A stretch of 61,871 nucleotides of DNA from a virus (lineage: Duplodnaviria > Caudoviricetes), in IMG/VR virus record IMGVR_UViG_3300042465_001631, positions 1 to 61,871 of that record; one strand, 5' to 3'. Each line of letters begins with the position of its first letter. Positions within the stretch are counted from its first letter, which is position 1. Made by a program: the position numbers and the translations under genes. Shown here piece after piece: positions 1-61,871 of this stretch. A model generated the notes under the pieces. The model was not told where the DNA came from. It did no database searches and saw only the letters and a list, made by a program, of their open reading frames with translations.

Positions 1-127
1 CTAACGGCTGCGGGTAGCATTGCAGAGCGGGATTTGAAACCGCTACACTATCCACCGCTACAAAAAGATATTGAAAGCAGTAAAGTTAAATATGCCGTAA
101 TACCCCGCTTTGCTGCTACCCGTTGTT
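1..127. repeat. Terminal overlap, identical to 61745-61871 (circular assembly signature)
   Basis: First 127 nt equal the last 127 nt; a 127 nt overlap is typical of a k=127 de Bruijn circular contig. Confidence 0.9.
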
Positions 128-129
128 AG
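1..129 (-). repeat. attC-like site A (junction copy)
   Basis: CTAAC-ggctg-CGGGTAGCA-tt-GCAGAGCGGG ... CCCCGCTTTGC-TGCTACCCG-tt-GTTAG imperfect inverted repeat. Confidence 0.8.
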
Positions 130-154
130 GGGCTGGTATTAATAAATAAACAAA

Positions 155-406
155 ATGCAAGTTGAAAAATTACCGCAAGACGATTGGAAATTAGACAAAA
201 TTGAGTTAGAATTTAAATCTTATGGTGAAGACCAAGGAAAATACGTTGGTAAAATTCGTTTTCAAAATGGCGAATACGAAAGTTTTTCTTTTAAAATAAG
301 ACCTGATATGGCACAGCCTTATATTGAATTAATAGGTGCTGATATTGTTAAATGTGCTGAGTCGCTTGGAGCAAGATTGGCTGAGTCACTTGGATTAAAG
401 AAGTAG
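155..406 (+). CDS. Cassette-borne hypothetical protein (83 aa), identical to 59004-59255
   Basis: ORF with A-rich leader, flanked by GTTAGGGGC / GCCCCTAAC. Confidence 0.8.
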   Translation: MQVEKLPQDDWKLDKIELEFKSYGEDQGKYVGKIRFQNGEYESFSFKIRPDMAQPYIELIGADIVKCAESLGARLAESLGLKK

Positions 407-434
407 TAAAATCGGGGCGAGGTTATACTTGCCC

Positions 435-559
435 CTAACGATGGTGCTATACGAAGGAGGCGATTATTAGCACTAAAGTTGATGCGGAGTACAAAATTTG
501 AATATAGCAGAATGTTTCTGCGGAACACCGAACCGCCTCTTTTGTATAGCACGTGTTAG
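435..559 (-). repeat. attC-like site G
   Basis: CTAAC-gatg-GTGCTATAC-gaag-GAGGCG ... CGCCTC-tttt-GTATAGCAC-gt-GTTAG. Confidence 0.8.
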
Positions 560-594
560 TGGCTGGGGCGGTTTTTAACGATAAATATAAATAG

Positions 595-1584
595 ATGGAA
601 TTAAACAAAATATATCATAGTGATTGGATGAATAATAATCTACCTGATAAATCGGTGCAGTTGATTATTGCAGACCCGCCATACTACAAAGTAAAAGGAG
701 ATTTTGACTTTGTATGGAAAACCTTTGACGAGTACCTGCAAGATGTAGAACGCTGGGCAATAGAATGTAAAAGAGTTTTAGCAGATAATGGAACGCTTTA
801 TTGGTATGGAGATGCTAAAAATATTGCCTATGCTCAAATCATTTTTGATAAGCATTTTAACTTATTGAATAGTTTGGTATGGGAAAACACAAACGACCAT
901 AAGCAACAAATAAGATTTAATACCGATTTGCGAACATTTGCACCACTTACTGAAAGATTACTGATGTATGAGCAAAGAGGACAAAAGACTGGAGGAGAAT
1001 TGATATTTGAGCAATTTTTAAAGCCTAAAAATCCATTTTCTAAATACCTAAAAATTGAATTTAAAAACGCTGGATTAACAAATAGAGAAATTGCACAACT
1101 ATTCCCAAGTAGAACAGGCGGATTAACTGGATGTGTTTCTAATTGGTTAAATGGTGATAATGTAATAACAGAGGAGCAATACAATGTAATTAGAGAATAT
1201 TGCAATAACAAGTATCTGCAGAAGCCATACGAGGAACTAAAAGCCGAATACGAGGAACTAAAAGCCGAATATGAAGTGCTACGCAGACCGTTTAATAATG
1301 AACGATATTATGGTGATGTGATTAGAATACCAAATTATGAAACTGGAAACCACGAACACGACACGCCAAAACCCGAAAAGCTAACAAGGGAAATAATATT
1401 AATAAGTAGCAGACCAAACGACCTTATTTTAGTTCCTTTTGCTGGAAGTGGAACGGAGTGTGCAATGGCAATAAAAGAAAATAGAAACTTTTTAGGATTT
1501 GAAATAAACGAAAAACACGTTAATTATGGAAACAAACGAACTGACAATATTAAGGCACAACCGTCATTATTTGCAGTAACGTAG
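595..1584 (+). CDS. Cassette-borne N6-adenine/N4-cytosine DNA methyltransferase (beta class) with inserted HTH-like segment
   Basis: N-terminal DPPY motif, HDTPKP and C-terminal PFAGSG SAM-binding motif; internal GLTNREIAQLF...VSNWL. Confidence 0.9.
   Translation: MELNKIYHSDWMNNNLPDKSVQLIIADPPYYKVKGDFDFVWKTFDEYLQDVERWAIECKRVLADNGTLYWYGDAKNIAYAQIIFDKHFNLLNSLVWENTNDHKQQIRFNTDLRTFAPLTERLLMYEQRGQKTGGELIFEQFLKPKNPFSKYLKIEFKNAGLTNREIAQLFPSRTGGLTGCVSNWLNGDNVITEEQYNVIREYCNNKYLQKPYEELKAEYEELKAEYEVLRRPFNNERYYGDVIRIPNYETGNHEHDTPKPEKLTREIILISSRPNDLILVPFAGSGTECAMAIKENRNFLGFEINEKHVNYGNKRTDNIKAQPSLFAVT
1227..1271 (+). repeat. 21-bp tandem repeat (YEELKAE heptads) inside the MTase gene
   Basis: ATACGAGGAACTAAAAGCCGA x2 plus a partial copy. 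Confidence 0.9.
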
Positions 1585-1610
1585 CCTTGCCACTAACTAC
1601 CTACTAACCG
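1584..1610 (-). other. Array-terminal, non-palindromic attI-like site
   Basis: GCCTTGCCACTAAC-TACCT-ACTAACC: core TAAC followed by a second ACTAAC direct repeat and no long hairpin. Confidence 0.45.
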
Positions 1611-1629
1611 ATATAAATACAAATCTTTT

Positions 1630-1812
1630 ATGAAGTCATACACTAAAAATATTACGATAAACGTTTCTGAAATTCAGTATGAAACTTTAGAAAAAATAAG
1701 AGCTAATAATATAAAAGTAGGCAATTTCATCCGTGAATCAATTCAAGAGAAAATAAAACGTGAGTACCAACAATTAATATTAAAACCAAAAAAATCGGAT
1801 TGTCCGTTTTAA
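1630..1812 (+). CDS. Small ribbon-helix-helix-like DNA-binding protein
   Basis: 60 aa; alternating beta strand (ITINVS) followed by two predicted helices (YETLEKI, VGNFIRESIQEKI). Confidence 0.55.
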   Translation: MKSYTKNITINVSEIQYETLEKIRANNIKVGNFIRESIQEKIKREYQQLILKPKKSDCPF

Positions 1813-1815
1813 ATT

Positions 1816-4227
1816 ATGGAAGTAACTATTTTCAAAAATATAAAACAAACATCAACACCATTCTTTAAGACGATTGGTGTGATGCTTGATAGGATACAGA
1901 ACGGTGCCTCTAAAGACATCGTCGAAGGTATTCGCAACGAGAAGGATAAGTCCGCTCGTAATGCACTAAAACAACAGCTACCTGCGGTATGTTTCTCAGG
2001 TAAGTTTACAAAGCGTGAGGATAAGGCTATTTTAGAGCACTCAGGGTTCATTTGCCTAGACTTTGATGGTTATGCCACCGACAAAGAAATGAAGGCTGAT
2101 AAGGCTATAATTTCAAAGAATAAATATACCTATTCAGTATTTGTTTCCCCATCTGGGAATGGACTAAAGATAATTGTTAAGATACCAAGAGATATTGATA
2201 ACCATAAGAACTACTTCAACTCACTTGAGAAGCACTTCAACTCAAAATACTTTGATAAGACATCAAAGAACATCTCAAGGGTATGTTATGAGTCGTACGA
2301 TCCAGAGATTTATGTGAACACCTCAAGCGAGTTGTGGAACACATTATCAGAACACGAGTATGTAGAGATGGATAGAGTAGCCTCTAAACCAACCATCCCA
2401 ATCACTAACGAGAACAAGATTATCGAAATATTGATGAAGTGGTGGACTAGAAAGTACGGACTCGTTGATGGTGAGCGTAATAACAATGTATTTATCTTAG
2501 CCTCAGCGTTTAATGACTATGGCGTAAGCAAGTCATTAGCAGAATATGTAATGGGACAGTTCGACAGTCAAGACTTCCCAATGCAAGAGATCAGGACTAT
2601 TATCGACTCAGCGTACAGACAGACACACAAGTTCGGCACAAAGTTCTATGAAGACGATGAAAAGCTAACACAAGTTCGTCAGAAGATTAAACGTGGAGTC
2701 TCTAAGAAAGACATCAAGTCAGAGTTAATGGGATTAAACATATCGGAGAATGCAATTGACGATGTGATTGATACAATCGACAGAGACGAGGCAAGTCAGA
2801 AGTACTGGAGCAAGTCGGATAAGGGAGCTATAAGCATTATTCACTACCTATTTAGAGAGTTCTTAGAGGACAACGGATTCTTTAAGTATATGCCGAATGG
2901 GGGTAAGAGTTACATCTTCGTAAGGGTAACAAATAACCTCATCGACCACACGTCGGAGGACGAGATTAAAGACTTTGTACTTAACCACTTACAAACTATA
3001 GATGACTTATCAGTTTACAACTACTTTGCAGACAAGACTAGGTTCTTTAAGGAGGACTTTTTATCTCTACTATCTTCTGTTGATGTATATTTTATGGAGG
3101 ATGATAAGGACAATGCGTACCTTTACTATAGGAATTGTGCTGTACGTATAGATAAGGACAACATCGACATCATCGACTATATTGACCTTGGTGGTTACAT
3201 ATGGGCAGATCAAGTTATCGACAGAGATTTTAAGATTTGTGAGATTACAGACTGTGACTTCAAGACATTTATAGCAAACGTATCAAACGATGAACAGACT
3301 CGCATTGACTCTCTTGAGAGCACGATTGGATTCCTTATGCATGGATATAAGAATTTATCTTACTGTCCTGCGGTCATTCTAAATGACGAGGTGATTACAG
3401 ATAACCCAGAGGGCGGAACTGGTAAGGGGTTATTTACTAACGCCATTTCTCAGATGAAGAAGTTAGCCTTTATAGATGGTAAGAGTGTGAACTTCGATAG
3501 TTCATTCCCATACCAGACCGTATCAGTTGATACACAGGTACTTGCGTTTGATGACGTTAAGAAACACTTCAACTTCGAGAGGTTATTCAGTGTGATCACA
3601 GAGGGTATAACTCTGGAGAGAAAGAATAAGGATGCAATGCATATTCCATTTAACAAGTCTCCTAAGATAATTATCACAACAAACTACGCCATCAAGGGTA
3701 AGGGTAATTCATTCGAGAGACGTAAGTGGGAGCTTGAGTTCAAGCAGTTCTACACCAAAGAGTTTACTCCACTAGTTGAGTTTGGTAGGTTATTATTTAC
3801 TGAATGGGACTCAGGCGAATGGTGCAAGTTTGATAACTACATGATTAAGAGTTTACAAGCATACTTAACGACTGGTTTAGTTAAGAGTGAATTTGTCAAT
3901 CTTAAGATACGTAAGTTGTCAGCTGATACGTGCCACGAGTTCATTGAGTGGGTTGGACTGATGGATGATAAGCCAACGATTGCACTAGGAGAGGTACTAT
4001 ATAAACAGGATCTATACCTTGACTTTATCCAAGACAATCCAGACTTTGCACCAAAGGCTAAGATGACCATATCACGTACTATATTTTATAAGTGGTTAAC
4101 ATCTTATGGACTATTTGTTACTGGAGTTTTACCTTCAGAAGGTCGTAATAACATAGGTAGATGGATCAAGTTCAAGGACGCAAGTGGTAAGGACGAAGAA
4201 GAAACTAATGATGAGCTCAGATTTTAA
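1816..4227 (+). CDS. Primase-helicase (VirE-N/BT4734-like primase, PriCT, D5-like SF3 helicase)
   Basis: CLDFD, SPSGNGLK, GERNNNVFILA; Walker A GGTGKG, Walker B LAFDD, IITTN. Confidence 0.85.
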   Translation: MEVTIFKNIKQTSTPFFKTIGVMLDRIQNGASKDIVEGIRNEKDKSARNALKQQLPAVCFSGKFTKREDKAILEHSGFICLDFDGYATDKEMKADKAIISKNKYTYSVFVSPSGNGLKIIVKIPRDIDNHKNYFNSLEKHFNSKYFDKTSKNISRVCYESYDPEIYVNTSSELWNTLSEHEYVEMDRVASKPTIPITNENKIIEILMKWWTRKYGLVDGERNNNVFILASAFNDYGVSKSLAEYVMGQFDSQDFPMQEIRTIIDSAYRQTHKFGTKFYEDDEKLTQVRQKIKRGVSKKDIKSELMGLNISENAIDDVIDTIDRDEASQKYWSKSDKGAISIIHYLFREFLEDNGFFKYMPNGGKSYIFVRVTNNLIDHTSEDEIKDFVLNHLQTIDDLSVYNYFADKTRFFKEDFLSLLSSVDVYFMEDDKDNAYLYYRNCAVRIDKDNIDIIDYIDLGGYIWADQVIDRDFKICEITDCDFKTFIANVSNDEQTRIDSLESTIGFLMHGYKNLSYCPAVILNDEVITDNPEGGTGKGLFTNAISQMKKLAFIDGKSVNFDSSFPYQTVSVDTQVLAFDDVKKHFNFERLFSVITEGITLERKNKDAMHIPFNKSPKIIITTNYAIKGKGNSFERRKWELEFKQFYTKEFTPLVEFGRLLFTEWDSGEWCKFDNYMIKSLQAYLTTGLVKSEFVNLKIRKLSADTCHEFIEWVGLMDDKPTIALGEVLYKQDLYLDFIQDNPDFAPKAKMTISRTIFYKWLTSYGLFVTGVLPSEGRNNIGRWIKFKDASGKDEEETNDELRF

Positions 4228-4462
4228 CTGGTGTATAGAGAATGACTTTCAGGTGTACATAATACCTGAACATTCTTTTGCACGGATATGTATCCGAAGG
4301 GGAGGAATAACGTCTTGCGGAAAGGACTTCTACTACACAAGTGGAGTAAGAGTTAATGTAGTAGAGCAGAAGGGAACAGTACTGTATAAGTCTCAGGACC
4401 TAGCAGCTAAGGAATTAAAGAATGTATATAAATACTTAAGAGAAAGATATGAAACTACGTGA
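4208..4462 (+). CDS. Hypothetical protein
   Basis: ORF overlapping primase stop and helicase start. Confidence 0.6.
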   Translation: MMSSDFNWCIENDFQVYIIPEHSFARICIRRGGITSCGKDFYYTSGVRVNVVEQKGTVLYKSQDLAAKELKNVYKYLRERYETT

Positions 4463-5690
4463 TTACCAGCAACAGTTATCAACTCAGGCATCAGAAATAC
4501 TGCTAGATAAAAAAATAGTATACCTAAACTTCTCGCCACGTGTGGGAAAGACATTAACAGCTCTTGAAACTTGTAAGAAAGTAAATGCACAGAAGGTTTT
4601 GTTCATTACCAAAATAAAGGCGTTTAGCTCGATACAAAGTGATTACGACGATTTCAGTTATCAATTTAGATTAACTATTATTAACAAGGAGTCTATTCAC
4701 AAAATTGATTTGAACGACTTTGACTTAGTAGTAGCAGATGAGGCTCACGGACTGTTCTCAACATTCCCCAAGCCAAATAACTTCTACAAGATATATAAGA
4801 AGCGCTTCGGACACCTTCCAATTATTATGTTAAGTGGTACAATGTGTGTTGAAAGCGGCTCACAGATATTTCATCAGTTCCAAGTTTCAGACTACTCTCC
4901 ATTTCGTAAGTACACTAACTTTTATAAGTGGGCTAAAGACTTCGTAAACATCAAGCAGAAGCAATTAGGATATGGTTTGATAAGCGATTATTCAGACTGC
5001 AATATGATAGAGGTAAATAAAATTATCGATCCTTATACACTTCGTTTTACACAAGAGCAAAGTGGTTTTATATCTACAGTTAATAAAAATATCTTAGAGT
5101 GCGAGATGAAGCCAATTATAAAGACGTTAATTGATAGACTGCTGAGGGATAGTATAATAGAAGGTAACGGAGAAGTTATTATAGCTGACACGTCAGTAGC
5201 AATGCAGCAGAAGGTACACCAACTAGGTTCAGGTACCATTAAATTCCATAGCGGTAACAGTAAAACAATAGATAACTCTAAGGCAGTATTCATTAAAGAA
5301 CACTTTAAAGGTAAGAAAATAGCTATAATTTACTACTACAAGGAGGAATTAAATATGCTGAATGAAGTTTTTAAGGACTTGATTACCACAGACTTAGAAG
5401 AATTTAACATAACCGATAAGATTTTTGTTGGTCAGCAAATATCAAGTTGTGAAGGAATTTCTTTGGCAAGAGCAGAATGTTTAGTATTTTTGAACTTTGG
5501 ATTTAGTGGCAAGAACTTCATACAAGCAATTGACAGACTGACGCTTAAGGACAGACCAACGAACGACGTGTACTTTGTGTTTAGTAGTATAGGGATTGAT
5601 AAGAAGATATATCAGTCGGTAAGTAAAAAAGAAAATTATAATAACTCACATTTTAAGAAAGATTATGGTAATAGTAATTCAAGAGTATGA
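4449..5690 (+). CDS. Superfamily 2 (SNF2/Res-like) helicase
   Basis: LRDYQ Q-motif, PRVGKT, DEAH, SGT, EGISL, QAIDR. Confidence 0.85.
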   Translation: MKLRDYQQQLSTQASEILLDKKIVYLNFSPRVGKTLTALETCKKVNAQKVLFITKIKAFSSIQSDYDDFSYQFRLTIINKESIHKIDLNDFDLVVADEAHGLFSTFPKPNNFYKIYKKRFGHLPIIMLSGTMCVESGSQIFHQFQVSDYSPFRKYTNFYKWAKDFVNIKQKQLGYGLISDYSDCNMIEVNKIIDPYTLRFTQEQSGFISTVNKNILECEMKPIIKTLIDRLLRDSIIEGNGEVIIADTSVAMQQKVHQLGSGTIKFHSGNSKTIDNSKAVFIKEHFKGKKIAIIYYYKEELNMLNEVFKDLITTDLEEFNITDKIFVGQQISSCEGISLARAECLVFLNFGFSGKNFIQAIDRLTLKDRPTNDVYFVFSSIGIDKKIYQSVSKKENYNNSHFKKDYGNSNSRV

Positions 5691-5898
5691 TTACTCAGAT
5701 AAAGAAGAGATAGTAATAGGAGTAGCATCTGATAGAGAAAATGCTATAAGAATTATAGACGAGTATTATGGTAAGAATGCGGTACAGTCTGATTTTAGAG
5801 ACATAAGAGATAGCGGTCTAAACTTCGATGTAAAGATTAAGGTAGATGGTTGTAATTATGGAGTTACAGGAATAGAATTTGAAATAGATGAGATATGA
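5665..5898 (+). CDS. Hypothetical protein
   Basis: ORF in coupled operon. Confidence 0.6.
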   Translation: MVIVIQEYDYSDKEEIVIGVASDRENAIRIIDEYYGKNAVQSDFRDIRDSGLNFDVKIKVDGCNYGVTGIEFEIDEI

Positions 5899-6119
5899 CA
5901 CCAAAAGAAAAAGCAATAGATTTAGTTAGAGATATGGAGTTTGAAATTCCATATATTCATGATCCAACAGAACCACAGGGCGATGATATCGCCAAACGAT
6001 GTACGTTAATATTAGTTAATGAAATGTTAAATAATTTTTTATCAAATAGAACTACAGAATATGGTAGAGAAAGATATCATTTTTGGCAACAAGTTAAACA
6101 AGAAATATATGGCAAGTAA
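5895..6119 (+). CDS. Hypothetical protein (MTPKEKA-type phage family)
   Basis: ORF with ATGA coupling. Confidence 0.6.
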   Translation: MTPKEKAIDLVRDMEFEIPYIHDPTEPQGDDIAKRCTLILVNEMLNNFLSNRTTEYGRERYHFWQQVKQEIYGK

Positions 6120-6378
6120 GTTCCAAACGAAGACTAAGAAACACTATGAAGCCAATGGTTGGATAGTTATTAATACTATTAAGTTAAGTGTTAGCGGCTA
6201 TCCAGATTTGTTTCTATTTAAGAATGGTAAGACTATCTTTATAGAGTGTAAGGAAGGTAACGATACCCTTAAGCCACTTCAAGAGTATCGAATAGACGAG
6301 TTAATTAAACAAGGATTTGAGGCGTTCTGCCTACACGCAACTAAAGGAAAAATATACCCACATGATAGAGAAATTTAA
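6109..6378 (+). CDS. VRR-NUC domain nuclease
   Basis: GYPDL...FIECK...LKPLQ motif; start moved to ATG 6109. Confidence 0.8.
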   Translation: MASKFQTKTKKHYEANGWIVINTIKLSVSGYPDLFLFKNGKTIFIECKEGNDTLKPLQEYRIDELIKQGFEAFCLHATKGKIYPHDREI

Positions 6379-6817
6379 AAAAATAATAGAGTTAGAAACT
6401 GGAGTAAATGTAGAAATAGTTTCAAGAAAGAAGGGATTTGTAGAGGCTAGAGCAATATACTATAAGCTACTTAGAGACATATCTAATATGACGCTACAGG
6501 CTATTGGAGATACTGTTAATAGAGATCACGCAACAATACTACATAGCTTAAAGAGTGTTGATGATTGGATGAAATATGACGCTGCATTAGCTCTTAAGTA
6601 CAAGAACATACTGTACGCTATAGATAATTTAGACGAAACAGATTTCAATAGCGTTAGGTATGAGAATATGATGTTAAATCTAAAGATAGTTGAACTTAAC
6701 AAACAGATAAAGAAATTATCAAACAATAGGTTCCAAGACCTTGTAGATAAGATACCTTACGATAAAGAAGAGCTTTTATACGATAGGTTCAGTACAATTG
6801 TAAGAATGAATTGTTAA
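6362..6817 (+). CDS. DnaA C-terminal-like HTH protein
   Basis: SRK..FVEAR..YY..MTLQAIG...NRDHATILH matches the DnaA domain IV pattern. Confidence 0.75.
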   Translation: MIEKFKKIIELETGVNVEIVSRKKGFVEARAIYYKLLRDISNMTLQAIGDTVNRDHATILHSLKSVDDWMKYDAALALKYKNILYAIDNLDETDFNSVRYENMMLNLKIVELNKQIKKLSNNRFQDLVDKIPYDKEELLYDRFSTIVRMNC

Positions 6818-6869
6818 TAACTTTATTTGCAAGTAAGCAAAATTGTTTATAAATTTGATAAAAAAAGAT

Positions 6870-7028
6870 ATGGAATATATTAACAGTACGATGAAGAATA
6901 TCAATGACTTAACAGATGAAATCTATGAAGGTCTTGCAGATGGAGATACAGCAGCATTGAACAAGAGTATTAATACTCTTATTGCTATCTTAAAAGATGT
7001 CCAACAATCAAATAAAGAGGGGTTATGA
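6870..7028 (+). CDS. Hypothetical protein
   Basis: Short helical ORF after a TAAATTTG promoter-like element. Confidence 0.55.
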   Translation: MEYINSTMKNINDLTDEIYEGLADGDTAALNKSINTLIAILKDVQQSNKEGL

Positions 7029-7174
7029 CACATACAGTAATTCAAGGTAACGAATGTTATATATTTATGAATGGATTACTTATTCATAAAACAAGGACTG
7101 ATAACTCAGAGTCAGGAGTTACATTTGATGTTATGGCTTATAGAAAAAATGATACTTTAAAATCAATACAATGA
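7025..7174 (+). CDS. Hypothetical protein (49 aa, not in ORF track)
   Basis: ATGA-coupled on both sides: MTHTVIQGNECY...KSIQ. Confidence 0.5.
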   Translation: MTHTVIQGNECYIFMNGLLIHKTRTDNSESGVTFDVMAYRKNDTLKSIQ

Positions 7175-56657: not shown

Positions 56658-57380
56658 ATGAAAGAAATAATAAATAATTTAAGAGATGATTCTAAATATT
56701 ATGGATCATACGGAGACCAATTCTTATCAAATAGCTCAGTAGGAGTATTACTAAATAATCCTAAATTATTTGGAGTAAAGCAACAACCAACCGTGCCAAT
56801 GCTACAAGGTAGCTACTTCCATACAGCACTTCTGGAACCTGAGAAGTTAAACAACTTTGAAATAGTTGAAGCAAGTACAAGGAATACAAATATTTATAAA
56901 GACGCTTCAAATGGTACATTATTACTTCTTAAAAATGAAGTAGATAATCTAAATGAAATGATTAAAACTATCAAATCTAATTTTAAATTTTATGAAGATA
57001 TTTATTCAGAAGGAAATGTATATGAAGAACCAGCGGTAAAAGAACTGTTTGGGCACCAATTCAAAGGTAAGTGCGATATTATAACAAATGATTTTTTAAT
57101 TGATATAAAAACAACATCAAGCATTAAAGATTTTAAATGGTCAGCTCGTAAATACAATTACGATTCGCAATCGTTTATATACCAACATTTATTTGGGAAA
57201 CCATTAGTTTTTTATGTAATAGATAAAACAACACTTGACTTAGGTATTTTTGAATGTTCTGAAGAATTTATAATGAATGGAAGAGCTAAAGTATTGGAAG
57301 CAATAGGAATTTATGAAAAGTTTTATGGTAAAAAGGCTTCAGAAGATATAAATAATTTCTTTTTGCAAGAAGAATTGTAA
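56658..57380 (+). CDS. RecE/Exo VIII-like PD-(D/E)xK exonuclease (DUF3799)
   Basis: LSNS, GSYFHTALLEP, KGKCD, IDIKTT, Y..Q...Y. Confidence 0.85.
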   Translation: MKEIINNLRDDSKYYGSYGDQFLSNSSVGVLLNNPKLFGVKQQPTVPMLQGSYFHTALLEPEKLNNFEIVEASTRNTNIYKDASNGTLLLLKNEVDNLNEMIKTIKSNFKFYEDIYSEGNVYEEPAVKELFGHQFKGKCDIITNDFLIDIKTTSSIKDFKWSARKYNYDSQSFIYQHLFGKPLVFYVIDKTTLDLGIFECSEEFIMNGRAKVLEAIGIYEKFYGKKASEDINNFFLQEEL

Positions 57381-57403: not shown

Positions 57404-57473
57404 AGCTACGTGGTATAGTGGTATTATATTGAGTTTTTCCTCATTGAGGCAGGTTCGATTCCTGTCGTAGTGC
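57404..57473 (+). tRNA. tRNA-like cloverleaf with a 6-nt anticodon loop (pseudo-tRNA, identity unassignable)
   Basis: GCTACG/CGTAGT acceptor, TAGTGGTA D-loop, TGAG/CTCA stem, GCAGG-TTCGATT-CCTGT T-arm; TATATTTG promoter at 57390. Confidence 0.55.
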
Positions 57474-57531: not shown

Positions 57532-57855
57532 ATGGAATTAACAGGGAAAATTGAAGTAATTAGTTTGAATGTAGGAAATGAAAAATTCAAAAAAAGCGAA
57601 TTAGTAGTAACCACAGATGAAAAATATACACAAAGTATCTTAATTGAGTTTGGTGGTGATAAATCAGACTTAATAGATGCTTATAAAGTAGGAGACGAAG
57701 TAGAGGTATCGATTAATATTGGAGGTAGAAAATGGACTAATCCAGAAGGTATTGACAAGTACTTCAATTCGATAAAGGGATGGAAAATCAAAAAACTATC
57801 TGAAGAGGCACAACCAACGCAAGCACAGGAACTAGCAGATATTCTTCCATTCTAA
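57532..57855 (+). CDS. DUF3127 single-stranded DNA-binding protein
   Basis: MELTGKI...VGDEVEVSINIGGRKW...YFNSIKGWKI; DILPF tail. Confidence 0.85.
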   Translation: MELTGKIEVISLNVGNEKFKKSELVVTTDEKYTQSILIEFGGDKSDLIDAYKVGDEVEVSINIGGRKWTNPEGIDKYFNSIKGWKIKKLSEEAQPTQAQELADILPF

Positions 57856-58810: not shown

Positions 58811-58849
58811 CTAAATTTCATTAAGAACCGCTAATGTAGTAATTAGCAT

Positions 58850-58978
58850 CTAACGGCTGCGGGTAGCATTGCAGAGCGGGATTTGAAACCGCTACACTAT
58901 CCACCGCTACAAAAAGATATTGAAAGCAGTAAAGTTAAATATGCCGTAATACCCCGCTTTGCTGCTACCCGTTGTTAG
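58850..58978 (-). repeat. attC-like site A
   Basis: Same as 1-129. Confidence 0.8.
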
Positions 58979-59003
58979 GGGCTGGTATTAATAAATAAAC
59001 AAA

Positions 59004-59255
59004 ATGCAAGTTGAAAAATTACCGCAAGACGATTGGAAATTAGACAAAATTGAGTTAGAATTTAAATCTTATGGTGAAGACCAAGGAAAATACGTTGGTA
59101 AAATTCGTTTTCAAAATGGCGAATACGAAAGTTTTTCTTTTAAAATAAGACCTGATATGGCACAGCCTTATATTGAATTAATAGGTGCTGATATTGTTAA
59201 ATGTGCTGAGTCGCTTGGAGCAAGATTGGCTGAGTCACTTGGATTAAAGAAGTAG
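59004..59255 (+). CDS. Cassette-borne hypothetical protein (83 aa)
   Basis: Identical to 155-406. Confidence 0.8.
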   Translation: MQVEKLPQDDWKLDKIELEFKSYGEDQGKYVGKIRFQNGEYESFSFKIRPDMAQPYIELIGADIVKCAESLGARLAESLGLKK

Positions 59256-59283
59256 TAAAATCGGGGCGAGGTTATACTTGCCC

Positions 59284-59414
59284 CTAACGGTATCTCGCTT
59301 TGTGTCAGTGGCGGATTAAAAAAGACTGACTTTCCGATTAATAACTAAACATACAAAAATGCAAGAAACATTAAATTTAGACCAAAACCCGCCATTGCAC
59401 AAAACTAGTGTTAG
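59284..59414 (-). repeat. attC-like site B
   Basis: CTAAC...TTTGTG-t-CAGTGGCGG ... CCGCCATTG-CACAAA...GTTAG. Confidence 0.75.
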
Positions 59415-59907
59415 CAAATCGGTTCCGAAAATTAAAACTTATGTGCTAACAGTTTCAGAATTTTTCCCTAAAACGCACAATAAATCAGGATTACCAACAG
59501 GATTTATTGATAAAATCGGAAGCAAAATTAAAAAGCACACCATTCGTGGAAATTACGAATTATGGAAAAAAAGAATTGAAGAAATACAAAAAGGAAATGC
59601 TGTTTTATCAATTCGTTATTGGCTTGGAAAACCTTATAATTCCAAGCAAAAAGAAGTTCATGTTTTAGATAAATATTCTGGAATTGGAGTTCAAAAATTA
59701 ACTTTTGAAGAGATGATTATGACTTGCGAAGATGTTTTAGAAACAAAATCAAAAGTAGGACTGCATATTTGGAAACCAAATTTTTCAAATATTAAAACTC
59801 TAGCGAAAAATGACGGACTTGAATTTGAAGATTTTAAAGAATGGTTTAAAGGTTATGATTTAAACGAACCAATGGCAATAGTTCATTTTACCGATGAACG
59901 TTATTAA
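59359..59907 (+). CDS. Cassette-borne ASCH/PUA-like protein; ORF begins inside site B
   Basis: KKHTIR...W and LAKNDGL...F..WF motifs. Confidence 0.6.
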   Translation: MQETLNLDQNPPLHKTSVSKSVPKIKTYVLTVSEFFPKTHNKSGLPTGFIDKIGSKIKKHTIRGNYELWKKRIEEIQKGNAVLSIRYWLGKPYNSKQKEVHVLDKYSGIGVQKLTFEEMIMTCEDVLETKSKVGLHIWKPNFSNIKTLAKNDGLEFEDFKEWFKGYDLNEPMAIVHFTDERY

Positions 59908-59914
59908 CTGTTTG

Positions 59915-59989
59915 CTAACGTTCCCACGATAGGGGCTGTTTGCCTATGCGGTTGCGTAAATTCGGCAAATAGACATTATCGTGTGTTAG
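59915..59989 (-). repeat. attC-like site C (short, 75 bp)
   Basis: CTAAC...ACGATA..CTGTTTGCC ... GGCAAATAG..TATCGT-gt-GTTAG. Confidence 0.75.
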
Positions 59990-60040
59990 CACCAGTAGCG
60001 GATTAATTAAACAAAAATATTAACTTAAAACAAAATAAAT

Positions 60041-60187
60041 ATGCCACCATTAAAAGAATACAGATTTGAGGATATGATGAACTCAAATGTACAAGTAGTA
60101 ATTAAATCATACAGCTTTACACAGGCTTATGAAATTTTGGTAATGATAACTAAACACCCTGCGGATTTTAAATGTACGAGTTTGTAG
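60041..60187 (+). CDS. Cassette-borne 48 aa protein (not in ORF track)
   Basis: MPPLKEYRFED...KCTSL fills the gap between sites C and D; A-rich leader. Confidence 0.65.
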   Translation: MPPLKEYRFEDMMNSNVQVVIKSYSFTQAYEILVMITKHPADFKCTSL

Positions 60188-60196
60188 CTATTGGTG

Positions 60197-60328
60197 CTAA
60201 CGTACGTTGAGCATTGTTGTAGTTGTGGATTAGGGCTGCCAAATTATCGATTAAACACTAATACAACCAAGTACAAAAACCAATTATTAATTAAGCCAAA
60301 TGCCACAATTGCCACAACGCATTGTTAT
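60197..60328 (-). repeat. attC-like site D
   Basis: CTAAC...GCATTGTTGTAGTTGTGG ... CCACAATTGCCACAACGC-att-GTTAT. Confidence 0.75.
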
Positions 60329-60354
60329 ATGATGGCTTTTTATTCACACAAATT

Positions 60355-60621
60355 ATGAAAGATTTTAAACAATTCAGAAGAAGTCAAATTGCAGAAATTA
60401 GAGAAGTAACAGAAGTAGATATTAATGTATTTAAGAATCACGGATTTATATATATATCAGAATATCTATTTGGTTTTAATATATCAATTTCCGATGCAGA
60501 TAAAAATAACGGAAGCCCTAAAATTGGCGATATGATTGCAAGAAATCCAAAAGACTACTCTGACCAATGGTTAATAGCTGAACAATATTTCAAAGATAAT
60601 TTTGAACAGTTAGTTGAGTAA
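60355..60621 (+). CDS. Cassette-borne hypothetical phage protein
   Basis: SISDADKNNGSPKIGDMIARNP...DQWL; start at ATG 60355. Confidence 0.75.
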   Translation: MKDFKQFRRSQIAEIREVTEVDINVFKNHGFIYISEYLFGFNISISDADKNNGSPKIGDMIARNPKDYSDQWLIAEQYFKDNFEQLVE

Positions 60622-60629
60622 GCTATCAT

Positions 60630-60715
60630 ATAACGGAAAAGCTTGTAGCTGTATGCCAAGAAAAACGTGAATCTAAAGAAAATAGTCGTAGCATATAGCT
60701 ACAAGCGTGTGTTAG
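60630..60715 (-). repeat. attC-like site E
   Basis: ATAAC-ggaaaa-GCTTGTAGCTGTATGC ... GCATATAGCTACAAGC-gtgt-GTTAG. Confidence 0.8.
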
Positions 60716-60749
60716 GGTGCGTAGTGGGTAATTAAAAATAAAAGTTATT

Positions 60750-61421
60750 ATGAAAAAGAATGTTTTAGAATTATTTGCAGGATCCCGCTCAATAGGAAAT
60801 AAAGCCGAGCAATTAGGAATGAATGTTTTTAGCGTAGATTGGACACCATACGAAAAAATAGATTTATCAATTGATATTGAATTATTGACTAAAGACCAAG
60901 TCCCATTTATTCCTGATGTTGTATGGGCAAGTCCTGATTGCACAACTTATACGATTGCCGCAATATCACATCATAGAAATGGAACAGAACCTAAAAGCGA
61001 TTATGCTTTAAAATGTGATAATGTAAATAAGCACTGGCTAGGCTTAATAAATGAATGGTTAATCATTAATCCTAAAATGGTATTCTTTATTGAAAATCCT
61101 CGTGGAATGATGCGAAAAATGCCGTTTATGAAAGGATTACAAAGAACTACTGTATGGTATTGTACTTACGGAGATTCGAGAGCAAAACCAACTGACATCT
61201 GGAGCAATAATATACAATCAATTTTTAATCAAAACGGATGGAATCCAAGAGCTGAATGTTTTAACGGTAATAAAAAATGCCAACACGAAAGCGCACCGAG
61301 AGGATCAAAAACAGGGACACAAGGAAAAAAAGGAAGTTACAACCGTTCTAAAATACCTGAATTATTATGCGAGGATGTGCTAAATTCAATTATGAATGAT
61401 AATCGTAGCTATGCACCCTAA
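60750..61421 (+). CDS. Cassette-borne short C5-cytosine DNA methyltransferase-like protein
   Basis: LELFAGS (motif I), ASPDC (IV), IENP (VI), KPT; stop codon is the TAA of the next core. Confidence 0.8.
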   Translation: MKKNVLELFAGSRSIGNKAEQLGMNVFSVDWTPYEKIDLSIDIELLTKDQVPFIPDVVWASPDCTTYTIAAISHHRNGTEPKSDYALKCDNVNKHWLGLINEWLIINPKMVFFIENPRGMMRKMPFMKGLQRTTVWYCTYGDSRAKPTDIWSNNIQSIFNQNGWNPRAECFNGNKKCQHESAPRGSKTGTQGKKGSYNRSKIPELLCEDVLNSIMNDNRSYAP

Positions 61422-61545
61422 CGGCGGATGCTACACGATGGCTGGGAAAAGCACACACCCAAACTTCGGATAATGACTGATTAAAAAAGTACAAACTGAA
61501 CTTTAAATTTAAAAATTAACCCAACTATTGTATAGCGTATGTTAG
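61418..61545 (-). repeat. attC-like site F
   Basis: CTAAC...ATGCTACACGATGGCTGGG ... CCCAACTATTGTATAGCGT-at-GTTAG. Confidence 0.75.
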
Positions 61546-61570
61546 CAGTAGTTATAATACAGAATTTGTT

Positions 61571-61738
61571 ATGAAAGCACTATGCTTAATTATTTGGATG
61601 ATTATTTCATTATTATTTGTTTGCAGTATCATTGGATTGGTAATGTTTATACCTAAAGACAATTGGCAAAATCAAGAAAACACACCATCAACTTGGTATT
61701 CTATTGGTAAAAAATTGTTGAACAGTGTGGTTGAATAA
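61571..61738 (+). CDS. Cassette-borne 55 aa membrane protein (not in ORF track)
   Basis: MKALCLIIWMIISLLFVCSIIGLVMF...; fills the gap between sites F and A. Confidence 0.65.
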   Translation: MKALCLIIWMIISLLFVCSIIGLVMFIPKDNWQNQENTPSTWYSIGKKLLNSVVE

Positions 61739-61744
61739 TTACTG

Positions 61745-61871
61745 CTAACGGCTGCGGGTAGCATTGCAGAGCGGGATTTGAAACCGCTACACTATCCACC
61801 GCTACAAAAAGATATTGAAAGCAGTAAAGTTAAATATGCCGTAATACCCCGCTTTGCTGCTACCCGTTGTT
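61745..61871 (-). repeat. attC-like site A, equal to the terminal overlap with 1-127
   Basis: Identical to window start. Confidence 0.85.

Follow-up and report, generated by a model that had tools for sequence, protein, structure and literature searches.

Sites of the attC type consist of inverse core sequences (RYYYAAC ... GTTRRRY) around an imperfect hairpin of about 57-141 nucleotides (nt), and attC-site clusters that have no integron integrase (CALINs), which are reportedly recognized by at least two attC sites without a nearby intI gene, are usually read as integron debris or stray insertions. The virus record IMGVR_UViG_3300042465_001631 of IMG/VR (Duplodnaviria; Caudoviricetes), which was analysed over its entire length of 61,871 base pairs (bp) and is referred to as the window, contains a CALIN of eight attC-like hairpins without intI. 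This array ends at a TAAC box (positions 1594-1597) that is followed by a second TAAC box and by an open reading frame (ORF) of 60 amino acids (aa) resembling ribbon-helix-helix (RHH) proteins. Judging from sequence comparison, it is probable that the TAAC box together with about 35 nt beyond it forms a fixed, hairpin-less partner site equivalent to attI, that the phage lacks a recombinase and that the RHH-like gene is the usual platform gene of the site; the attI-like reading of the site as such appears well supported.

The closest described systems are CALINs of virulent phages, with which the window shares attC-like hairpins, orphan DNA methyltransferase (MTase) cassettes and the lack of an integrase; the portions of the respective report consulted (Qi et al. 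2023, PMC9892861) include phage P12002L, the attC directions of which are termed 'divergent', and no attI-type end, RHH gene, unit polarity or reversed ORF direction was found described in these portions. P12002L and its sister P12002S carry the same type of terminal site as the window, and P12002S also has an RHH homologue at the array end. Literature searches, considered at the level of top-ranked titles and abstracts, gave nothing that connects phage CALINs with an RHH gene or with a conserved site resembling attI. Phage CALINs, including the MTase cassettes of P12002L, are already published; the conserved site with its RHH module was not found in print.

An earlier, sequence-only reading of the window had stated that the last cassette ends without a hairpin and that a second ACTAAC 11 nt later, the 60-aa ORF and a primase gene follow. 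The sequence is as claimed, with the second ACTAAC at positions 1603-1608, and no hairpin was found at positions 1583-1640 (-0.3 kcal/mol on either strand, not below shuffled sequences, z +0.8 and +1.1). In the window alone, CTAAC-N6-CTAAC was observed once versus 0.21 expected, and at least one copy occurred in 19 of 100 shuffles, which is not beyond chance; the double repeat gains its significance from the relatives and not from the window itself. A protein search with the 60-aa ORF yielded 12 viral loci, L061 and L001 were added through the primase, and pattern scans supplied further ends, L113-L132 being retrieved by a pattern that holds the second box and the element beyond it. Regarding the 14 RHH-bearing loci (window included), the first TAAC was located at the junction in 14/14 and the second TAAC 7 nt further on in 12/14. 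Regarding the 32 unique ends, the mean information content per position rises from 0.33 bit before the first TAAC to 1.39 bit over TAAC to +50, with different terminal cassettes and the consensus TAAC TAnTTGC TAAC CGCTATAAATGTATTACAATTATG. An automatic walker applied to 34 ends, several of which are truncated by contig ends and one of which (L118) is a chance match, found the cassette partner in 28 and at least one upstream hairpin in 23. The array-bearing genomes have differing backbones of 32-73 kb. The junction motif was present in four of the five RHH-bearing loci from bacterial genomes, and one locus (L100) lies inside a prophage-like region of a Flavobacterium isolate. The array end of L004 and L003 reads TGCTAAC/TATTGCG... 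ahead of a gene for a protein like single-stranded DNA-binding protein (SSB).

Two side observations concern these ends. An invariant T is located at -7 from the first TAAC amid the variable cassette ends of the 32 aligned sequences (motif TTRC-NNN-TAAC), which suggests that the recognized R-box is longer than the TAAC core. One phage contig (L080, positions 5968-7140) has two platform sites in the order array, site, RHH gene, three genes (one of them VRR-NUC-like), hairpin, cassette, second site and other gene, the first box of the second site being mutated to TATC.

It is extremely improbable, and largely refuted, that the array end is a decayed attC site whose 3' arm was lost by chance, the RHH gene then being an orphan without relation to it, of antitoxin-like or anti-defence type. 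The site does begin with 11 nt (TAAC-T-AYTT-GC) that resemble those of the hairpin 5' arm (consensus TAAC-G-TTt..GC of 46 hairpins), and some homologues of the 60-aa ORF bear the Joint Genome Institute (JGI) name 'predicted CopG family antitoxin', but a chance remnant would be expected neither to be conserved beside different terminal cassettes in 32 ends nor to mark the exact point at which two relatives differ by one unit (see below). Moreover, no toxin partner is shared among the loci, the toxin adjacent in type II toxin-antitoxin systems is absent, and the gene after the RHH gene varies. Because of the resemblance to the 5' arm, the site may nevertheless descend from a truncated hairpin that was later fixed.

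The one-unit difference was found between L086 and L087, the flanks of which are 94-99% identical, L087 having exactly one added unit of 354 nt composed of a hairpin and an ORF. The extra block starts directly after ...CCACTAAC with G and the hairpin, and ends with ...CTGCTAAC before TACTTGCTAACCG, which places the difference exactly after TAAC; the crossover core of integrons (GTT, or AAC on the other strand) is present in the window as TAAC 1594-1597. The two copies of the 83-aa cassette in the window (58840-59289 versus 61735-61871/1-440) are 99.3% identical over 450 nt and have the upstream hairpin in common, the downstream hairpins being different, and P12002S and P12002L carry the same unit of hairpin and MTase gene behind two different cassette ends. 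Together, these three comparisons indicate that the mobile unit on the + strand is a hairpin with its downstream ORF and that the crossover is located in the TAAC box; it follows that the minus strand reads site - (cassette - attC)n, which is the order of an integron. Among 11 locus pairs with similar downstream backbone, ten have only distal segments of the array in common (466 nt or more from the site), L086/L087 being the sole pair with a common site-proximal cassette. Regarding the entry of new cassettes, gain or loss at the site was thus observed in one clean pair and proximal novelty in ten more, with the direction unpolarised. The claim of an attI-type array end made in the sequence-only reading is borne out by the conserved hairpin-less junction, the sharp boundary at the first TAAC, the one-unit difference at this point and the geometry of a true integron of the host class (L109/L149, Bacteroidia), one strand of which reads hairpin - cassette - ...CTAAC - intI (+); this integron, with a single clear attC and without a clear cassette ORF, is unfit to control for ORF direction.

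In Logan contigs of four lake metagenomes, which cannot reveal rare circles or new junctions, the 440-bp repeat formed by the duplicated cassette was present at about twice the depth of its flanks (183 versus 76-99 in X1), and both exits of the repeat were found in all four runs. The 127-bp assembly overlap of the window falls within this duplicated cassette. A contig from X2 (depth 47) contains the hairpin 436-558 with three substitutions and then, from about 15 nt past GTTAG, a different sequence; it may represent a variant of the population in which a nearly identical hairpin is followed by another cassette.

When followed upstream from TAAC 1594-1597, the array was found to comprise eight cassette bodies and eight hairpins and to run across the window ends; seven of the eight cassettes are distinct, two encode DNA MTases, and the 83-aa cassette is present twice. 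The far end was assigned to the distal-most hairpin on account of its left flank (Table 1). A TAAC...GTTA hairpin precedes every cassette; TAAC and GTTA are invariant, and the window hairpins measure 73-130 nt, those of relatives mostly 115-130 nt. The attC cores are therefore present, and the positions outside AAC/GTT match the consensus only partly. An inverted repeat (GTTA and 5-6 nt / 5-6 nt and TAAC) spans the ORF in 8/8 window cassettes, i.e., the bases after GTTA are the reverse complement of those before the terminal TAAC over 5-6 nt beyond the core. Each cassette start is thus complementary to its own R'' box, which is the signature of integron cassettes passing through a circular form; the flanks on the two sides of a hairpin are mostly unmatched. 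Five of the seven hairpin regions that were folded were more stable than shuffled sequences on the + strand (z -2.6 to -5.3), which folds at least as well as the - strand (e.g., -20.5 versus -14.6 kcal/mol) by means of G·T pairs. Regarding the linkage of hairpins to upstream versus downstream ORFs, two of the four similar hairpin pairs among 59 hairpins were informative and both had the expected direction, a number too small for statistics.

Several further features of the hairpins were noted. Hairpin loops (e.g., 61470-61510) have short motifs in common that are rare in cassette bodies: AGTACAA occurs in 14/59 hairpins versus 1/69 bodies, and TTAAATT is placed about 40, 60 or 78 nt before the hairpin 3' end. 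The window-type terminal element ATACAAATCTTTT resembles these motifs. The longest ORF of one cassette (59359-59907) opens in the loop of the preceding hairpin, and its PHROG match begins at residue 26, so that the true start is probably 3' of the GTTA box; several ORFs of L061 likewise start inside hairpin loops. A 'short hairpin-less site' considered at 59280-59312 was rejected, as it is part of the full hairpin 59285-59413, with the family match of ORF182 beginning at residue 26.

Arrays of the promoter early stem-loop (PeSL) + ORFan type in T4-type phages (Arbiol et al. 2010, PMC2839356, as far as consulted) share with the window a hyperplastic region of small ORFs, a stem-loop before each ORF, and a unit of element and downstream ORF that is mobile without a dedicated recombinase. 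By analogy, no site-specific recombinase might be involved here at all, the units being shuffled by phage recombination or replication, either by exonuclease and annealing or by template switching at the hairpin bases, with CTAACG as microhomology. The phage encodes an exonuclease VIII-like PD-(D/E)XK protein (56658-57380), the polarity of the units (motif 5' of the ORF) is the same, and PeSL mini-circles are described in the parts of PMC2839356 consulted as arising without a dedicated recombinase. According to the same source, however, PeSLs are homologous promoter-terminator motifs recombining by homology, whereas only the TAAC/GTTA cores and the flank complementarity are common to the hairpins studied here. 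Their interiors are non-homologous (4 pairs with at least 85% identity among 59 hairpins) and thus offer no long shared motif for recombination. Homologous exchange also does not predict the inverted repeat of 9-11 nt across the ORFs (8/8 in the window, 28/34 terminal cassettes), which is a requirement of a folded R-box in an excised circle, nor do the exact junctions at TAAC and the single fixed hairpin-less end site resemble PeSL arrays. PeSL-like shuffling is consequently regarded as improbable.

Compared with integrons (class 1 attI1 and chromosomal), the site favoured here as an attI equivalent shares a non-palindromic, hairpin-less and presumably double-stranded junction between platform and first cassette at the cassette-proximal end, a putative crossover in a GTT/AAC core with a direct repeat of the core one helical turn off, and a platform gene immediately beyond that points away from the array, as in L109/L149. 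The phage differs in that the adjacent gene is no cognate integrase but encodes the dispensable 60-aa RHH-like protein. It further differs in the direction of the cassette ORFs. In integrons these read away from attI and the Pc promoter, according to the parts of Nivina 2016 consulted; in the window all of them face the terminal site, as deduced from the crossover position, and run along with the phage early genes. This reversed orientation was missed by the earlier reading. The attG sites of integron integrases (Loot et al., 10.1101/2022.09.11.507474, as far as consulted), at which cassettes can be taken up outside integrons, are likewise double-stranded and non-att and have a minimal G(A/T)T core, but are described as numerous and unconserved, whereas the phage site is one conserved element of 35-45 nt reused across lineages.

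The conserved stretch includes a non-coding AT-rich element between the second TAAC and the start codon of the RHH gene (Table 1), which may serve as promoter or operator or may extend the site. Its ATG-proximal sequence covaries with the RHH subfamily (ACAAATCTTTT with the KNITINVSE type, GTATTACAATT with the KTKVIRISE type), the TAAC boxes being constant, and this points to an operator at the RHH gene's own start. The stretch might therefore be chiefly a phage promoter/operator with the RHH protein as its autoregulator and not related to recombination, the TAAC having once served as an attG-like secondary insertion site. This alternative is rather unlikely, although the same element also precedes other first genes (a 37-aa ORF and a gene for a 293-aa protein) and IntI is able to place cassettes into genome sites of the GWT type (Loot et al., 10.1101/2022.09.11.507474, as far as consulted). 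Lineages with RHH proteins of only 57-60% identity have both TAAC-TAYTTGC-TAAC and the element conserved, while L004 and P12002L hold a TAAC site-like end without element or RHH gene. On the + strand, positions 1598-1629 yielded no sigma-70-type promoter in a scan that is not built for Bacteroidota promoters. Moreover, a promoter function would be compatible with the site remaining an active insertion point.

RHH proteins (CopG/Arc/MetJ) have an N-terminal strand followed by two helices and dimerize through the strand. The 60-aa ORF had been called RHH-like, and this identity is only moderately supported: an AF2 monomer model (pLDDT 76) is extended at residues 1-13 and has helices at residues 14-25 and 30-45. 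The match to the curated profile DUF6290 (E 0.002, 18.7 bits) is below the cut-off of 27, and Foldseek comparison of the model with the PDB gave nothing at E<=0.001; it gave 16 weak rows with E 1.1-9.6, nine of which we take from their titles to be ribbon-helix-helix proteins. The ORF matches phrog_25647 (5e-24), which has no assigned function, and the family comprises 1,886 clusters in the protein collection. RHH genes co-occur with the conserved motif at array ends of relatives, namely after 25/32 ends (one copy with an in-frame stop, one matched over residues 1-36 only). Among 20 sequences (19 loci and the window, +/-6 kb), RHH was the only family common to 16, the next best occurring in eight. 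The gene following it varies, and a primase gene is found there only in the window, L061 and L001. At other ends the site is followed by a 37-aa ORF (L116, L119, L128, L131 and L132) or by the 293-aa protein (L114 and L121), for which searches of Pfam and PHROG with the L114 copy gave no family. The RHH gene is thus tightly tied to array ends yet, by comparison of relatives, not needed for them, and a role as a required accessory factor was not supported.

The C-terminus ...CPF of the RHH-like protein is invariant (in distant homologues, YPF or DPF). This end and the end ...LPF of the DUF3127 protein of the phage are reminiscent of the C-terminal PF tip through which bacterial SSB contacts its partner proteins.

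No recombinase was found in the genome, in agreement with the earlier reading. Six-frame profile searches of the full record (E<=10, control genomes matched) gave zero matches to tyrosine recombinases (PF00589), serine recombinases (PF00239), HUH Y1 transposases (PF01797), DDE integrases (rve, PF00665) and the integron integrase (TIGR02249), and Pfam scans of 46 ORFs detected an HNH endonuclease, a VRR-NUC protein, a helicase and the PD-(D/E)XK exonuclease but no recombinase. Among the array-bearing viral records, PF00589 was present in 2/35, and in two of the seven that are at least 90% complete; the other five near-complete relatives have no tyrosine recombinase. The proposal that the phage borrows a host integron integrase was weakened. 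Besides the scarcity of IntI in host-class genomes given below, the Flavobacterium isolate with the prophage-like copy has only Xer-like matches (up to 101 bits, cut-off 265) and no IntI. IntI1 recombined one P12002L hairpin in Escherichia coli (Qi et al. 2023, PMC9892861, as far as consulted), so that an IntI can use such hairpins but is seldom at hand. Alternatively, the phages may encode a recombinase of a fold outside current profiles, with the RHH protein as its site-specificity subunit. Many early ORFs have no family, the family-less 293-aa protein directly follows the site in two loci, and host IntI is rare, yet beyond RHH no family spans the RHH-bearing loci within +/-6 kb, and the arrays occur on different backbones; we consider such an enzyme quite improbable. 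Dif-like copies of the conserved element were not enriched in a host genome (18 matches versus 29 for the reversed control).

Some observations weigh against the attI-like site with its RHH platform gene. Internal indels are also present in the arrays, so that a preference for the terminal site is not proven; the L086/L087 difference is compatible with both insertion and deletion; and recombination was deduced from sequence comparison, none being seen directly. In L089, L102, L061 and L100 the place of the second TAAC is taken by TACA, TAAA or TTGG, and phages 6H and P12002S lack it; L113-L132, being pattern-selected, are unusable for the conservation of the second box and the element, for which only the RHH-based set counts. 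Two of the seven folded window hairpin regions were no better than shuffled sequences (z -0.12 and +0.09). The hairpins have their unpaired surplus (4-5 nt versus 0-2 nt) on the arm beside the cleaved box (36 and 38 of 44 hairpins), i.e., on the 5' arm of the better-folding + strand, whereas canonical attC sites have extrahelical bases near L'' on the other arm of the recombined bottom strand (Nivina 2016, as far as consulted). Regarding the RHH gene, 7/32 ends carry another gene in its place, contig G432 (estimated 100% complete) has the site without it, and P12002L keeps a P12002S-like site without it in the 7.5-kb stretch compared around the array; the gene is hence dispensable and its role unproven. 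Regarding the enzyme, among 401 genomes sampled from the likely host class, one had IntI above cut-off (up to five IntI candidates scored per genome). The earlier interpretation as a whole is partly supported.

According to the favoured explanation, the terminal site would act in double-stranded form as the partner of an integron-type array. The mobile unit on the + strand is C - hairpin - GTTA-X - ORF - X'-TAA, with crossover inside the TAAC box (G/TTA on the minus strand), and units are gained or lost between the last cassette and the terminal site, as the comparison of relatives shows. Because the unit carries the hairpin 5' of the ORF, cassette ORFs read towards the site and would be co-transcribed with the phage early genes. 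The recombinase would most likely be a host tyrosine recombinase provided in trans, with the folded hairpin of the + strand and the double-stranded site as its substrates. The RHH protein would most likely bind the conserved element immediately 5' of the RHH start codon; it would either autoregulate a promoter from which transcription resumes past the array or serve as an optional accessory factor marking the site. Elements exploiting Xer are known with folded single-stranded attP (CTX-phi type) and with small element-encoded Xer activators. Purely by analogy, a mobile element without recombinase may likewise offer a folded hairpin to a ubiquitous host tyrosine recombinase, and a small element-encoded protein may license the reaction; the phage differs in that no dif-like site was identified. 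An unlikely but far-reaching extension is that a self-contained 'phage integron' without integrase exists in lytic and temperate phages of Flavobacteriia, with a conserved attI-like site, a homogeneous family of attC-like hairpins of about 125 nt with reversed asymmetry and cassettes oriented with phage transcription, and that the RHH protein, by an SSB-tip-like PF end, recruits or licenses a ubiquitous host recombinase of the Xer type and not IntI on replicating single-stranded DNA. If true, phages would trade anti-restriction MTases and other cassettes during co-infection.

The first and last 127 bases of the window are identical, i.e., the record is the assembler's closure of a circle, and the phage genome is circular. 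The nearest named relatives by primase similarity infect Flavobacteriia (Flavobacterium, Nonlabens, Cellulophaga, Polaribacter, Tenacibaculum and Maribacter). Between 66% and 100% of the sampled words of positions 1-4300 were present in four lake-water metagenomes from four studies, and the source phage is from freshwater; a megablast search of positions 1-6000 against the INPHARED phages gave zero matches. The sole match in an Rfam scan, in which the hairpins matched no family, was a tRNA gene at 57404-57473 (37.5 bits), to which ARAGORN gives an odd two-base anticodon without amino-acid assignment. Between the terminator of the SSB-like gene and the primase gene (100-250 nt upstream of the latter), relatives without array (L013-L078) have an AT-rich stretch and tandem iteron-like repeats (e.g., AAAATCGACAT twice); from its sequence this interval looks like a replication origin. 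In the window the interval between the SSB-like gene and the primase gene is occupied by the cassette array. A summary of the features is shown in Table 1.

Table 1. Positions of the array, its terminal site and the neighbouring genes in the window
Feature	Position	Strand	Remarks
Exonuclease VIII-like PD-(D/E)XK protein	56658-57380		adjoins a 170-aa protein of unknown type
SSB-like DUF3127 protein	57532-57855		C-terminus ...LPF
Hairpin, distal-most	58851-58977	+	left flank without inverted partner
Cassette bodies	58974-59288, 59410-59919, 59985-60201, 60324-60634	+	
Hairpins	59285-59413, 59916-59988, 60198-60327, 60631-60714, 61419-61544	+	separate the distal cassette bodies
Cassette body	60711-61422	+	DNA MTase (phrog_757)
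Cassette body	61541-61749	+	
Hairpin, 127 nt	61746 onward / 2-128	+	spans the 127-bp assembly overlap
Cassette body, 83-aa ORF 155-406	125-439	+	second copy of 58974-59288
Hairpin, TAAC..GTTA, 123 nt	436-558	+	part of the MTase unit
Site-proximal cassette body	555-1597	+	N6/N4 DNA methyltransferase ORF 595-1584
Stop codon TAG of the MTase ORF	1582-1584		
End of the last cassette, GCCACTAAC	1589-1597	+	inverted partner of GTTAGTGGC at 555-563
First TAAC box	1594-1597	+	minus strand G/TTA; putative crossover and insertion point; boundary of variable cassette and conserved platform
Spacer TACCTAC (7 nt) and second TAAC (1605-1608)	1598-1608	+	consensus of relatives TAYTTGC-TAAC
Non-coding AT-rich element CGATATAAATACAAATCTTTT, 21 nt	1609-1629	+	reaches up to ATG; relatives CG(C/A)TATAAAT(G/A)YA
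60-aa RHH-like ORF	1630-1812	+	phrog_25647; weak DUF6290; invariant C-terminal CPF
Primase-helicase	1816-4227	+	BT4734-like_N, PriCT_1, DUF5906 (Pfam); backbone gene 3' of the platform

The array described here lacks an integrase but possesses a conserved insertion site of its own, to which a platform gene is linked, and this docking-site module recurs across many phage lineages. The signature X-TAAC-TAYTTGC-TAAC-CGCTATAAAT can be used in annotation to mark an active array end, and the module is present in cultured systems, namely Polaribacter phages P12002S and P12002L and Flavobacterium phages 6H, 2A and 23T. The finding raises the question of which enzyme moves attC-type cassettes without IntI, and bears on the exchange of counter-defence genes, such as orphan methyltransferases, among phages.

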